Source: Pseudomonadota bacterium (GTDB lineage Bacteria > Pseudomonadota > Alphaproteobacteria > Rhizobiales > MH13). From it: DNA of 64,000 nucleotides. Of this stretch, positions 1 through 4,043 are shown in pieces. Below the pieces are notes generated by a model. It worked only from the letters and a program-made list of their open reading frames with translations. It was not told where the DNA came from and made no database searches. The DNA lies in contig JBCCPK010000008.1 of assembly GCA_039024915.1 (NCBI GenBank), positions 57,587 to 121,586 of the forward strand. Direction: 5' to 3'. The position numbers were made by a program, and so were the translations under genes. The first letter of the stretch is position 1, and each line of letters begins with the position of its first letter.

Positions 1-17
1 GTCGGGCCGTGTTGTTC

Positions 18-432
18 GCTCCGGTCCTTCGGACCGACCGCTTGAAAGCCAGGAGCAAAAGATATGCGGTTGTTCCGAAGGAACAGAGCAAAAGGAACGC
101 GGTTGTTCCGAAGGAACAGAGCAAAAGGAACGCGGTTGTTCCGAAGGGACAGAGCAAAAGAAATACCGGTCAGGCCGCGTTGTTGGCTCCGGTCCTGCGG
201 AACGACCGCTGGACGTTGTTTCTCATTCGCTCCGGTCCTGCGGAACGACCGCTGCACTCATCTGGCTCCGGTCCTCGGACCGACCGCTGGACGTTGTTTC
301 TCATTCGCTCCGTTCCTCCGGAACGACCGCTGGACGTTGTTTCTCATTCGCTCCGTTCCTACGGAACGACCGCTGGATTTTGACATGACACGCTATTCTT
401 ACGCGTCATTCGCTCTGTCCTTTCAGGACAAC
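18..432. repeat. Array of ten REP-like 24-nt hairpin units (consensus GCTCYGKTCC-NNN-GGAMCRACCGC) in both orientations
   Basis: Plus copies at 18, 186, 229, 265, 307, 350 and degenerate 412; minus copies at 66, 99, 132 (33-bp period). Most have a 6-bp stem and 3-nt loop, e.g. CGGTCC-TTC-GGACCG, CGTTCC-TAC-GGAACG, TGTTCC-GAA-GGAACA. The linker GGACGTTGTTTCTCATTC occurs three times. Confidence 0.92.
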
Positions 433-441
433 AACGCATGA
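64..441 (+). other. Possible repeat-encoded leader ORF (125 aa) coupled to dnaE2
   Basis: AGGAG at 51-55, 8 nt before ATG 64. The frame is open across the array and its TGA (439-441) overlaps the dnaE2 ATG (438-440). The product is low-complexity and Arg-rich with no recognisable homology, so it may not be translated. Confidence 0.3.
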
Positions 442-3400
442 CCAGGCCCCGCGAAAATCCGCCGATCCCCTTTCGCAGGCCCGCCGGCAAAAGCTCGGCC
501 GGGCTTGTGGCGCGGCCAGTCGATCCAAAAAAGACCGGCTATGCCGAACTGCAGGCCACCAGCAATTTTTCCTTTTTGCGCGGCGCATCGCACCCCGGCG
601 AGCTGGTCATCGCGGCCAAGGCACTCGGACACAGGGCGATCGCCCTGACCGATCGCAACACGCTGGCAGGCGTGGTGCGCGCGCATGAAGAGGCGAAGAA
701 GGAGGGCATCCGGTTCGTTGTGGGGGCGAGGCTTGATCCGCAAGACGGGCCATCGGTGTTGGTTTATCCCAGCAACCGGAGGGGCTACGCCAATCTCTGC
801 CGGCTGCTATCGCGCGGCAAGATGAACGCGCCGAAGGGCGCGTGCCATTTCTCCTTCGAAGACATGCTGGCGCATCTTGAAGATCAGGCGGTGATCGTGG
901 TCCCGCCGGCGCACTTTTTTGGCTCTGTTCCAGCCCAGAACGGGCTGGAACAACCGCGGGATGACACCTTCACCGATCAGCTCGTGCGAATCCGCGATGC
1001 CGCGCCGGGGCGGACCTGGCTGGCCGCGCATTACCATTTCACCGGCGACGATCGCGCCCGGCTGAACAAGCTGGCTCAGCTTTCCAGGACCACCGGGGTA
1101 CCGCTGGTGGCAACCGGCGACGTGCATTACCACGCGCCCGAACGCCGCCCTTTGCAGGACGTTGTGACCTGTATCCGCGAAAAGCTGCCGCTGGCCAAGG
1201 CAGGCTTCAAGCTCCTTGCCAATGCCGAGCGCCACCTTAAACCCGGCTTTGAAATGGCACGGCTTTTTGCCGATCATCCGGCCGCTTTAGCCGCGATCGG
1301 TGATGTGCTCGCTCTGGCCAATTTTTCGCTTGATGAGCTTGCTTACAACTACCCAAACGAGCCGGTACCCAAGGGCAAGACACCGCAGGGTCACCTCGAG
1401 GCGCTGACCCTGGAGGGTGCCAAATGGCGTTATCCTGGTGGGGTACCTGAACGTGTGCGTGCAGCGATAGACAAAGAGTTGTCCTTGATCGACGATCTTG
1501 GATACGCGCAGTATTTTCTGACCGTCCACGACATCGTCGCCCACGCCCGCAAAAAGGGTATTCTGTGCCAGGGGCGCGGTTCGGCGGCCAACTCGACGGT
1601 GTGTTACTGCCTCGGCGTCACGGCGGTCGATCCTTCCCAGACCAGCCTTCTGTTTGAACGCTTCCTGTCGCGGGCGCGCAAGGAGCCGCCCGATATCGAT
1701 ATCGATTTCGAGCATGAGCGGCGCGAAGAGGTCATCCAGTACATCTACGAGCGCTACGGTCGCCATCGCGCAGCGCTCGCCGCCACCGTCATCACCTATC
1801 GCCCACGCTCAGCGGTGCGCGAAGTGGGCAAGGTGATGGGTCTGTCGGAAGACGTCACCAACGCTCTGGCCTCGACGGTCTGGGGTTCGTGGGGCCGAGA
1901 ATTGCCCGCCGATCAGATACGGCAGGCCGGGCTCGACCTTGATGACCCGACCCTCAAACGGACCATTGAGCTGGCGCACGAACTGTTGGGCTTCCCGCGT
2001 CATCTATCACAGCATGTCGGCGGGTTTGTGCTGACCGAAGACCCGCTTGAAGAGCTGGTGCCGATCGGCAATGCGGCCATGGACGACCGCACCTTCATCG
2101 AATGGGACAAGGACGATATCGACACCTTGAAGATCCTCAAGGTCGATGTGCTGGCGCTCGGAATGCTGACCTGCATCGCCAAGGCGTTCGGGCTGATCAA
2201 GCGCCATTACGGTCTTGATTACGATCTGGCGACGCTGCCGCAGGAAGACCCCGATGTTTACGCGATGCTCCAGCGGGCCGATGCTATCGGCGTGTTTCAG
2301 GTCGAAAGCCGGGCCCAGCTCAACATGCTGCCGCGCATGAAGCCCAAGCGCTTTTACGATCTGGTTATCGAGGTTGCTATCGTGCGGCCGGGGCCGATCC
2401 AGGGCGATATGGTGCACCCCTATTTGCGGCGACGGGACGGCATTGAGACGGTCAACTACCCCTCGCCCGCGCCCGAACATGGGCCCAAGGATGAATTGGA
2501 GCGAGTGCTTGGGCGCACCTTGGGTGTACCGCTGTTTCAGGAGCAGGCGATGCAGATCGCCATCGATGCGGCGAAGTTCACCCCCGATGAAGCCAATCAG
2601 CTGCGCAAGGCGATGGCGACCTTCCGGCGCGTCGGCACGATCCACACGCTGCAGGAAAAGATGGTCGGGCGCATGGTCGCGCGCGGCTATGATCCCGAAT
2701 TTGCGGCGCGCTGCTTCAACCAAATCAAGGGCTTCGGCGAATATGGCTTTCCCGAAAGCCACGCTGCGAGCTTTGCGCTTCTAGTCTACGCCTCAAGCTG
2801 GATCAAATGCCATTTCCCCGATGTGTTTTGCGCAGCCATTCTCAACAGCCAACCCATGGGGTTCTACGCGCCCGCACAGCTGGTGCGCGATGCGCGTGCG
2901 CACGACGTGGAGGTGCGCGAAGTGGATGTGAACCAGTCGCATTGGCACAACACGCTCGAAGAGCATGAAAGCGGCGGCTTTGCCGTGCGGCTGGGGTTCC
3001 GCCAGCTCGATGGGCTGCGCGAGGATGTGATGGAGGCCTTCATGCAACGCCGAGGCAACAGGCGCCTGACCTCTATGGATGATTGCCGCCGGTGCGGCCT
3101 GTCGGTCGCGGTGCTCGAACGCCTCGCTGCCGGTGATGCGTTCCGCTCGCTCGGCCTTGACCGGCGGCAGGCCTTGTGGGCCGTGCGCGGGCTGATGTCG
3201 GACAGCCCTGCCGACCTTTTCGATGCGGCAGAAGCCGATCCCACCGGTGCGGATGTGCCCGTCACCTTACCATCGATGCCGCTGGGCGAGCACGTGGTCG
3301 CCGATTACCAGACCCAGAAATTGTCTCTCAAAGCGCACCCGATGTCGTTCCTGCGCGAGCGCTACACGGCCCAGGGCATGATCACCGCTGAGGGGCTGTT

Positions 3401-4043
3401 CCTGTCCCGGCACGGCCAGCGGGTTCGCTATGCGGGCGTTGTGCTAGTCCGCCAGAAACCGGGTACCGCCAAGGGTGTGGTCTTTATGACATTGGAGGAT
3501 GAGACCGGAACGGCGAACATCGTTGTGTGGGGCAAGATGGTCGAGAAATTCCGCCGGGTGGTGATGCAGGCGCGACTGGTCGAGGTGGTCGGCGAGGTGC
3601 AGCGCAAAGAGGATGTCATTCACATCGTCGCGCACAAGCTGATCGACCGGACCGATGATCTGTCGGTGCTGTCCGATGAGCCGCTGCCAGAAACGGTGGC
3701 CCACGCAGACCATGTCCGCAGCCCCCTGACGGGGCCCGTCAAAGCCAATGGCGACTATCGCAAGCAGCTTCGCGGCCGGGCGCGGCGCAAGAAGGATTTG
3801 CGCGAAGAAGGCGTTCTGGAGCTTCCGCTGGCCCACGCCGACGAGGTCAAAAGACCGGTCGAACAAGACACGCGCATCTCAGGTGGCGGAAAGGCTGGCT
3901 ATTTGCGGGTGCGCCGCCGACCGCTTTCGCAGGCCGGTGAACAAGCCGCGTCCGCAAAACAATCGTCAAAAGGGACGACGCCAGGGCGCGGTACCCATCC
4001 AAGGAATGTTCGGGTCATTCCCAAAAGCCGTGATTTCCATTGA
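438..4043 (+). CDS. dnaE2: Error-prone DNA polymerase DnaE2 (ImuC)
   Basis: N-terminal YAELQATSNFSFLRGASHPGELV, PHP domain, CQGRGSAANS, PDIDIDF catalytic motif, FPESHA, OB-fold TLEDETG, C-terminal SRDFH typical of DnaE2. Confidence 0.97.
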   Translation: MTRPRENPPIPFRRPAGKSSAGLVARPVDPKKTGYAELQATSNFSFLRGASHPGELVIAAKALGHRAIALTDRNTLAGVVRAHEEAKKEGIRFVVGARLDPQDGPSVLVYPSNRRGYANLCRLLSRGKMNAPKGACHFSFEDMLAHLEDQAVIVVPPAHFFGSVPAQNGLEQPRDDTFTDQLVRIRDAAPGRTWLAAHYHFTGDDRARLNKLAQLSRTTGVPLVATGDVHYHAPERRPLQDVVTCIREKLPLAKAGFKLLANAERHLKPGFEMARLFADHPAALAAIGDVLALANFSLDELAYNYPNEPVPKGKTPQGHLEALTLEGAKWRYPGGVPERVRAAIDKELSLIDDLGYAQYFLTVHDIVAHARKKGILCQGRGSAANSTVCYCLGVTAVDPSQTSLLFERFLSRARKEPPDIDIDFEHERREEVIQYIYERYGRHRAALAATVITYRPRSAVREVGKVMGLSEDVTNALASTVWGSWGRELPADQIRQAGLDLDDPTLKRTIELAHELLGFPRHLSQHVGGFVLTEDPLEELVPIGNAAMDDRTFIEWDKDDIDTLKILKVDVLALGMLTCIAKAFGLIKRHYGLDYDLATLPQEDPDVYAMLQRADAIGVFQVESRAQLNMLPRMKPKRFYDLVIEVAIVRPGPIQGDMVHPYLRRRDGIETVNYPSPAPEHGPKDELERVLGRTLGVPLFQEQAMQIAIDAAKFTPDEANQLRKAMATFRRVGTIHTLQEKMVGRMVARGYDPEFAARCFNQIKGFGEYGFPESHAASFALLVYASSWIKCHFPDVFCAAILNSQPMGFYAPAQLVRDARAHDVEVREVDVNQSHWHNTLEEHESGGFAVRLGFRQLDGLREDVMEAFMQRRGNRRLTSMDDCRRCGLSVAVLERLAAGDAFRSLGLDRRQALWAVRGLMSDSPADLFDAAEADPTGADVPVTLPSMPLGEHVVADYQTQKLSLKAHPMSFLRERYTAQGMITAEGLFLSRHGQRVRYAGVVLVRQKPGTAKGVVFMTLEDETGTANIVVWGKMVEKFRRVVMQARLVEVVGEVQRKEDVIHIVAHKLIDRTDDLSVLSDEPLPETVAHADHVRSPLTGPVKANGDYRKQLRGRARRKKDLREEGVLELPLAHADEVKRPVEQDTRISGGGKAGYLRVRRRPLSQAGEQAASAKQSSKGTTPGRGTHPRNVRVIPKSRDFH

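Follow-up and report, generated by a model that had tools for sequence, protein, structure and literature searches.

What is an array of ten DNA hairpins doing between imuB and dnaE2, two genes that otherwise lie almost end to end, and how did it come to be there? The question is raised by the left end of a 64,000-nt stretch of an alphaproteobacterial genome (the window), where positions 18-435 contain ten copies of one 24-nt hairpin unit directly upstream of dnaE2, the gene for an error-prone DNA polymerase. Our reading, which we consider probable, is that the array is a cluster of small DNA hairpins that belong to a genus-restricted family resembling repetitive extragenic palindromic (REP) elements, spread locally and are tolerated in the imu operon. 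The observations behind it are the anatomy of the array, the existence and distribution of a family of such units, the polarity of the insertion with respect to relatives, the in-frame periodicity of units within genes, and the local relatedness of three blocks of units in the operon.

Sequence reading and a structure-aware scan agreed on ten units in the order one forward, three inverted and six forward, with the 24-nt consensus GCTC-YGNNCC-NNN-GGNNCR-ACCGC. Unit 1 (18-41, + strand; GCTC-CGGTCC-TTC-GGACCG-ACCGC) starts 22 nt past the stop codon of imuB, situated just outside the window (5-7 nt before it; genome C8:57,579-57,581). The inverted units 2-4 follow at 66-89, 99-122 and 132-155 (- strand) with a period of 33; their + strand reads GCGGT-TGTTCC-GAA-GGAACA-GAGC, then AAAAGGAAC, and they are the reverse complement of the forward array units. 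Units 5-9 are forward again (186-209, 229-252, 265-287, 307-330 and 350-373, + strand) and are joined by the linker TGGACGTTGTTTCTCATTC three times and TGCACTCATCTG once, and units 5 and 6 have hybrid arms (CGGTCC / GGAACG). The degenerate unit 10 (412-435, + strand; GCTC-TGTCCT-TTC-AGGACA-ACAAC) ends 2 nt before the dnaE2 ATG, and its 3' arm contains AGGA (425-428), the sole Shine-Dalgarno-like motif, 9 nt 5' of that ATG. The loop is 3 nt long in nine of the ten units and 2 nt in the remaining one (265-287). Tandem Repeats Finder reported a period of 33 (3.3 copies) at 53-160 and a period of 43 (4.7 copies) at 186-377, and both resolve into copies of the single 24-nt unit. Moreover, TCTCATTC stands directly 5' of three array units and CGTCATTC directly 5' of the last one. 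The original prediction, made from the window alone, had described ten hairpins in both orientations right upstream of dnaE2, two apparent tandem repeats that are one 24-nt element, and these same preceding motifs at three units and at the last; the unit scan bore out each of these points. Positions 380-411, between units 9 and 10 (TTTTGACATGACACGCTATTCTTACGCGTCATTC), form the only non-repeat part of the spacer, and a promoter scan was negative there. A clustered regularly interspaced short palindromic repeat (CRISPR) or integron attC reading of the array was rejected on its anatomy, with 9-19 nt between units and no unique spacer content.

The stem of the unit is maintained by compensatory changes. 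Covariation was assessed with a pattern in which pairs 2, 5 and 6 were fixed and complementarity was not demanded at pairs 1, 3 and 4. Among 40 copies from this genome, Watson-Crick pairing was found in 40 at pair 1, 37 at pair 3 and 35 at pair 4, against shuffle means of 22.5, 23.7 and 18.0, respectively (p <= 1e-4), and pair 1 was C-G in 13 copies and T-A in 27. The same analysis of 97 copies from four other complete congeners gave 95/97, 83/97 and 93/97 paired at these positions, with shuffle means of 52, 42 and 43. Pair 1 alternates between C-G and T-A, and pairs 3 and 4 among T-A, G-C and A-T. The compensatory stem changes first noticed in the array hold in this genome and in four congeners. 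Since these changes alter the encoded peptide where units are translated, it is nucleic-acid structure and reading frame that are under selection, not the peptide. The unpaired head GCTC is nearly invariant (76-79 of 79 copies at each position), and the loop is T-N-C in 75% of copies, which reads C-GNA-G on the other strand. Stable d(GNA) triloops with a C-G closing pair form unusually stable DNA mini-hairpins (PMC3201870, PMC13037366), and the presence of C-GNA-G on the complementary strand hints that the single-stranded DNA form of the unit matters.

Comparison with related genomes indicated that the array was inserted into a compact operon. The imuB and dnaE2 genes lie close together in 15 of the 17 cassettes of the genus, whereas here they are 442 nt apart, 437 nt of this spacer being in the window (1-437, + strand). 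In G008, the closest species, whose DnaE2 N-terminus is 76% identical, the gap measures 8 nt; it is 2 nt in G015 and does not exceed about 20 nt between aligned ends in 13 other cassettes. The only other long gap, 288 nt, was found in the distant congener G013, which carries a different, independent array of about seven units at this junction, together with one in-frame unit in imuB and three units that begin on the dnaE2 stop codon. No units were found in the cassette of 13 of the 16 congeners. The array does therefore sit where imuB and dnaE2 normally adjoin, as had been suggested, and the proposed comparison of spacers across relatives revealed gaps of 2 to about 20 nt versus 442 and 288 nt where arrays are present. 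The gene downstream is a well-supported dnaE2 (438-4043, + strand, ATG at 438; 1201 aa): with 1470.8 bits, its product exceeded the cut-off of 939 for NF004225 ('error-prone DNA polymerase'), and it contains PHP, pol3-alpha, finger, HHH and OB domains, and its start codon and N-terminus (MTRPRENPPIPF) are kept in the closest species. An exact-protein look-up returned no identical DnaE2 protein from other strains.

The original prediction missed that the units continue upstream of the window, in frame inside both imuB and imuA (C8:55,317-55,842; L036 1818-2343). Compared with G008, imuA has two extra units (72 nt, +24 aa) in frame near its 3' end, and imuB has about 290 extra nt (about +90 aa) between WFPRFAMDR and RVLVEL. 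The imuB insert comprises eight units of 36 nt each, one inverted and seven forward, in an N-terminal loop, translated as SPGSGPSARPLH / SPGSVPAEQPLM, and the Pfam IMS match of ImuB starts only at residue 164. ImuB matches IMS and IMS_C; the ImuA call is weak (19 bits against a cut-off of 150) and leans additionally on gene position. All seven spacings between genic units are 36 nt, while only 7 of 33 intergenic spacings are divisible by 3 (Fisher p = 1.8e-4). That every genic spacing is a multiple of three supports selection on the frame, and therefore on functional ImuA and ImuB. A related metagenome-assembled genome (MAG) carries four inverted 51-nt units at the same ImuB loop and more in the mid-linker, with an imuB-dnaE2 gap of 9 nt. 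In addition, the long ImuB homologues P0037 (880 aa, Oceanicella) and P0039 (713 aa, Paroceanicella) may carry repeat-derived insertions of their own.

The three blocks in the operon are related to one another. These blocks are the only places with the linkers ACCGC-TGCACTCAYCYG and ACCGC-TCATGTCACCYG, and a TGCACTCATCTG-type linker after a unit is found elsewhere only in the imuA and imuB blocks of the same operon. These operon-specific linkers indicate that the imuA, imuB and spacer blocks derive from one another as 36-nt copies of unit plus linker. Consistent with short-range spread, 20 pairs of loci in the genome lie at most 5 kb apart against 0.54 expected (maximum 5 in 5000 simulations).

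The unit is not confined to the operon. A scored scan over nine flank positions and six pairs found 36 perfect copies with a 3-nt loop, compared with one in the reversed genome, and the structure-aware scan put the total at about 75-85 copies at about 21 loci; with all scans considered, the genome has about 75-100 copies at roughly 20 loci. These scored scans replaced an earlier loose scan (one flank mismatch, any loop length), which returned noise (828 matches versus 821 in the control). With a strict pattern, 40 copies were found in this genome and 1-37 per genome in 15 congeners, so that all 16 genomes of the genus were positive, and no copy was found in 25 other genera of the order; the reversed-pattern control was empty across the 41 genomes except for one match in one genome. 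Regarding the proposed genome-wide copy count, the outcome is therefore intermediate: the copies number in the tens and not the hundreds, with a strong regional bias, the imuA-imuB-dnaE2 operon alone accounting for about 27% of the copies in this genome. The other element proposed for search, a REP-associated tyrosine transposase (RAYT) or IS200/IS605-type TnpA, was not encountered: PF01797 (Y1/RAYT, IS200/IS605-type transposase) gave no match in any of the 16 genus genomes, and the same search was positive in six control genomes. Likewise, a mobilising gene flanked by units was sought at C2 46-51 kb and C10 6.5-9.1 kb, and only SnoaL-like, RlpA-like and HD-domain proteins and an Ala-rich open reading frame (ORF) were present.

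Gene context, assigned from ORFs plus Pfam, placed about a quarter of the copies within genes and the rest mostly between genes, near gene 3' ends. Seven units stand straight after the uvrB stop codon and six in the rpsO-pnp spacer; others lie past sdhB and ftsA, in the leuB-asd spacer and, as a run of 12, ahead of a dodecin gene. A unit is found 0-40 nt from the stop codon of uvrB, sdhB, ftsA, imuB and an ABC-transporter gene. In most arrays of this family the arrangement is purely head-to-tail, with 2-12 units and linkers of 9-19 nt, each array having its own linker. The orientation of units relative to flanking genes is mixed and thus gives no sign of an orientation-specific RNA function. 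Two sites recur across the genus: 6 of 14 congeners share with this genome a unit just 3' of uvrB, and 9 of 15 have units upstream of rpsO. At the latter site, all genomes examined (L117-L131) share the conserved motif GCTGGACGACATCCCGG 40-70 nt ahead of rpsO, a candidate for an S15 autoregulatory leader; one to three hairpin units stand on either side of it in the 9 of 15 congeners. The varying position of the units relative to this motif points to repeated insertion or rearrangement and not to one conserved functional site.

Several further features of the family were recorded. A phage-like or mobile island at C1:75,000-90,000 (L150) has eight hairpin loci, several of them in frame or as C-terminal tails, among genes for an HTH_36/DnaD-like replication protein, a clamp-like protein, a GcrA-like protein, whose linker contains in-frame units, and a cytosine methyltransferase fragment. 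A phage database search with this island gave a single short methyltransferase match, to a Caulobacter phage. At C3:389,372-389,623, a variant unit, GCTCTGGCCAGCGGGCTAACCCGC, plus linker is repeated in tandem six to seven times with a 42-nt period; the genes on either side encode a LacI-type regulator and a short-chain dehydrogenase. The replication-strand bias of units is mixed in this genome. In the complete genomes G001, G002, G003 and G007, the strict copies number 20/2, 25/6, 12/7 and 7/18 in forward/reverse orientation, all 7 reverse copies of G003 being in one array and the G007 assembly being inverted. This single-strand bias is chromosome-wide and does not flip between replichores (loci 42:7 on one and 18:6 on the other, with dnaA as origin proxy), and roughly half of the loci in the complete congeners are found in the first 0.5 Mb or so downstream of dnaA. 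The strand bias in these four congeners is explained neither by replication-linked nor by transcription-linked insertion.

How might such units spread? With no transposase found, slippage duplication together with short-range template switching or gene conversion is the best reading. In the model that we propose, the element is a unit with an unpaired GCTC head, a 6-bp covarying stem, a 3-nt loop, an ACCGC tail and a short pyrimidine-rich linker. The family would grow locally, its units being duplicated in tandem with their linkers and also copied over short distances, and this growth could proceed through slippage, template switching or gene conversion at hairpins formed in single-stranded DNA. 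The hybrid units, in which the left arm of one subtype is joined to the right arm of another (CGGTCC/GGAACG), suggest exchange at the loop. The operon would thereby have been colonised at three places, namely imuA (2 in-frame units), the N-terminal loop of imuB (8 in-frame units) and the spacer (10 units), the last of these landing between an imuB stop and a dnaE2 start that were ancestrally only 2-9 nt apart. Insertions would then persist where they are tolerated, as in flexible protein loops and in the spacers of a rarely expressed SOS operon.

The array may also affect the expression of dnaE2. A LexA-type box, GAACAAAAGTGGAAC, lies at C8:54,410-54,424, about 165 nt before imuA and after a TTGACT hexamer, and is a perfect GAAC-N7-GAAC, which we take to be the alphaproteobacterial LexA box, so that GAACAAAAGTGGAAC is presumably the LexA operator of the operon. 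It is the sole perfect box; inside the array only one-mismatch GAAC-N7-GGAC matches were found, created by the hairpin arm. Scans of the array for sigma-70 promoters and intrinsic terminators gave nothing above shuffles, and an Rfam search of the operon (E <= 1) gave only a chance match to mir-24. With a LexA-type box before imuA and no promoter-like site in the array, dnaE2 is probably still transcribed as part of the imuA-imuB-dnaE2 transcript. Within that message, the array would end the stop-start proximity of imuB and dnaE2 and any translational coupling between them, and the last hairpin would bury the dnaE2 Shine-Dalgarno motif. Folded as RNA, the spacer reached -209 kcal/mol (z = -7.8), its three inverted units being paired to forward units further downstream, and such added stable structure could shield the upstream imuAB message, attract RNase III or block exonuclease. 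Moreover, a 125-codon frame runs through the array (64-441, + strand), with AGGAG 8 nt before its ATG and a stop that overlaps the dnaE2 start (ATGA). This frame is a possible bridging ORF for translational coupling and may partly restore ribosome flow to dnaE2. The G013 array has a comparable frame of 99 codons, which begins at the imuB stop (ATGA) and reaches 5 nt into dnaE2. Since the window array is largely free of stop codons in all three + frames, the 64-441 frame by itself is weak evidence for a bridging ORF. These effects on dnaE2 expression are accordingly put forward as predictions from the sequence.

Could the array instead be a selected cis-regulatory RNA or DNA element that gates dnaE2 translation, by a hairpin sequestering the Shine-Dalgarno motif, a leader ORF or RNase III cleavage? 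The AGGA placed 9 nt before the dnaE2 ATG within the last unit, the frame with its AGGAG-N8-ATG start and its stop on the dnaE2 start, the spacer fold at z = -7.8, and the G013 array, which arose independently at the same junction and whose 99-codon frame joins the imuB stop to dnaE2, are what such an element might look like. The same unit, however, occurs at about 20 unrelated loci, and 15 of the 17 genus junctions are without an array, that of the closest species included; furthermore, a bridging frame comes cheaply where every + frame is open, the ATGA stop is ancestral, no Rfam family was matched, and promoter and terminator signals are at chance level. We therefore regard this explanation as unlikely, and the earlier idea of a structured control element specific to the mutator polymerase was not sustained, given about 20 other loci and 15 of 17 bare junctions. 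A similarly low likelihood is assigned to the view that the imuA-imuB-dnaE2 cassette is a functional hotspot, in which repeats are made or kept owing to what the cassette does, either by error-prone synthesis or template switching in cis at an SOS-induced locus or by selection for altered mutasome stoichiometry. In its favour, 27% of copies here lie in the cassette and 7 of the 19 strict copies of G013 in or beside it, in-frame ImuB units are found at two recurrent sites in three lineages, and by our own estimate independent cassette loci number about 6 across the 16 genomes, where about 0.6 would be expected. Di Nocera et al. judged REPs in repair genes, DnaE2 among them, hard to call fortuitous (PMC3733652). 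On the other hand, 13 of 16 congeners have no units in the cassette, the operon-specific linkers reduce the three blocks here to one seeding followed by local copying and not three independent events, units recur more regularly at other sites, such as the uvrB 3' flank (this genome plus 6 of 14 congeners) and the rpsO upstream region (9 of 15), and the phage-like island has as many loci. The stronger form of this view, in which the mutasome operon is a true hotspot where transposase-free C-GNA-G mini-hairpins are copied by template switching at an SOS-induced locus and the arrays are kept as a retuning of the mutasome, seems to us just as doubtful. If true, retuning would act through longer in-frame ImuA and ImuB loops, DnaE2 translation uncoupled from ImuB, and a bridging frame that restores ribosome flow, and one mechanism would cover repeats in repair genes across phyla.

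Two further explanations are much less probable. A classical RAYT-mobilised REP or bacterial interspersed mosaic element (BIME), or a member of the CGTC REP superfamily, would share with the array its small palindrome, an unpaired 4-nt head ending in TC, a CC-containing tail, the alphaproteobacterial host and CGTCATTC before the last unit, and CGTC REPs are likewise without a transposase. Mobilisation by RAYT is largely refuted, as none of the 16 genomes has a PF01797 match, and the GCTC head, 6-bp stem, 3-nt loop and head-to-tail arrays do not agree with the 8-9 bp stems, 4-5 nt loops and head-to-head dimers of CGTC REPs; true CGTC-type REPs, moreover, exist separately in this genome with a different consensus. 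We consider such membership very improbable. Least probable of all, by a small step, is an assembly artefact, that is, collapse, expansion or chimerism of short-read repeats. The genome is a draft of 35 contigs and the array, at about 420 bp, is probably longer than the reads of a short library, but the path through the units is unique because their stems, loops and linkers differ, no contig ends in a unit, comparable arrays are present in single-contig complete congeners and in G013 at the same junction, and the imuA and imuB arrays keep the reading frame. Local spread of a tolerated REP-like family remains the reading that we prefer, and certain points weigh against it. Slippage and template switching are deduced from sequence patterns only. 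The concentration of units in the cassette may go beyond tolerance, given that this genome and G013 have three cassette loci each and the related MAG has two ImuB sites. The predicted minimum-free-energy fold of the spacer is dominated by long-range pairing and not by ten local hairpins, which makes the RNA structure in vivo uncertain. In addition, the model leaves the chromosome-wide strand bias of the four complete congeners unexplained, and the family fails the formal definitions of both REP superfamilies, GTAG and CGTC.

The locus is a clean example, and one open to dating, of how a small repeat can remodel an operon. Relative to the closest species, about 24 residues were added to ImuA, about 90 to ImuB, and a 430-nt structured spacer was placed before dnaE2; both imuA and imuB keep their frame, and inside them only in-frame 36-nt units are found. 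The attraction of REPs to repair genes including DnaE2, raised previously (PMC3733652), thereby gains an alphaproteobacterial family for which no transposase was found. The system could be used to examine the effect of the array on DnaE2 output and SOS mutagenesis, as well as the spread of hairpins without a transposase. Even if the array is without effect, it would serve as a strain marker and as a caution in annotating the lengths of ImuB and ImuA.

Among known repeat systems, several show partial resemblance. Mycobacterial interspersed repetitive units (MIRUs), the subject of work by Supply and colleagues in 1997, are reportedly tandem 40-100 bp units of operon spacers with small frames that overlap the flanking stop and start codons. 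The array is alike in having a small frame in an operon spacer that overlaps codons of the flanking genes, the coupling role of 64-441 being putative; MIRUs differ in lacking covarying-stem hairpins and in belonging to a different phylum. Rickettsia palindromic elements are roughly 100-150 bp long. The present units, in contrast, are 24 nt plus linker, form tandem 36-nt or 51-nt periods and reside in a host that is not an obligate intracellular bacterium. The two share in-frame palindromes in permissive protein loops that are translated as extra peptide (cited in PMC3733652).

The REP superfamilies GTAG and CGTC were defined by Di Nocera, De Gregorio and Rocco in 2013 (PMC3733652). According to that study, CGTC REPs of Alphaproteobacteria have no dedicated transposase and are defined by a CGTC/TGTC/CCTC tag, an 8-9 bp stem with A-T as its first two pairs, a 4-5 nt loop and a CCA tail; head-to-head dimers predominate, clusters are rare and head-to-tail arrays negligible. 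Intragenic REPs cluster in genes for replication and repair, among them DnaE2 and uvr genes, to a degree that the authors found hard to regard as fortuitous (PMC3733652). The family described here resembles them in its alphaproteobacterial host, the lack of a dedicated transposase, an unpaired 4-nt head ending in TC, a short C-rich tail, and intragenic copies, often in repair genes. It is unlike them in its GCTC head, a 6-bp stem that starts Y-R and then G-C, a 3-nt loop, a tail of ACC(GC) and not CCA, and the dominance of head-to-tail arrays. Thus, of the link to CGTC-tagged REPs suggested by the original prediction, only the resemblance stands, and the family departs from their definition in its head, stem, loop, tail and arrangement. 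Classical CGTC-type REPs make up a separate set of about 16 copies in the genome (e.g. C1:133,745, C2:47,042 and C10:6,685). In these, (C/T)GTCA is followed by a stem of 7-8 bp, a loop of 4-5 nt and the returning arm of the stem, and the element closes with T and (C/T)CA; the majority match CGTCAYCCTCGSSC-TTGT-SSCGAGGRTCCA, and two adjoin GCTC hairpin arrays.

The REP/BIME systems of E. coli and Pseudomonas are like the present family in being imperfect palindromes of 20-40 nt with unpaired ends and tens to hundreds of copies, located mostly between genes near gene 3' ends, clustered in both orientations and variable in copy number between relatives, with hairpins expected in mRNA and in single-stranded DNA. 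The present family is distinguished by the lack of RAYT in 16 genomes, its low copy number, its 6-bp stem and triloop, a mainly head-to-tail arrangement with fixed linkers of 9-19 nt, and about a quarter of copies inside ORFs. As to the mosaic arrangement of BIMEs, the window array has both orientations and defined linkers, while most arrays of the family are purely head-to-tail. The proposal of a REP/BIME-like cluster is supported overall by dispersed, mostly intergenic palindromes past stop codons, by covarying stems and by copy-number variation between species. Because the CGTC definition fails and separate CGTC-type REPs exist in the genome, we file the family as a REP-like variant outside both superfamilies. 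Transposase-less alphaproteobacterial REPs and REPs in DnaE2 are already known (PMC3733652), and to these the family adds a previously undescribed REP-like variant.

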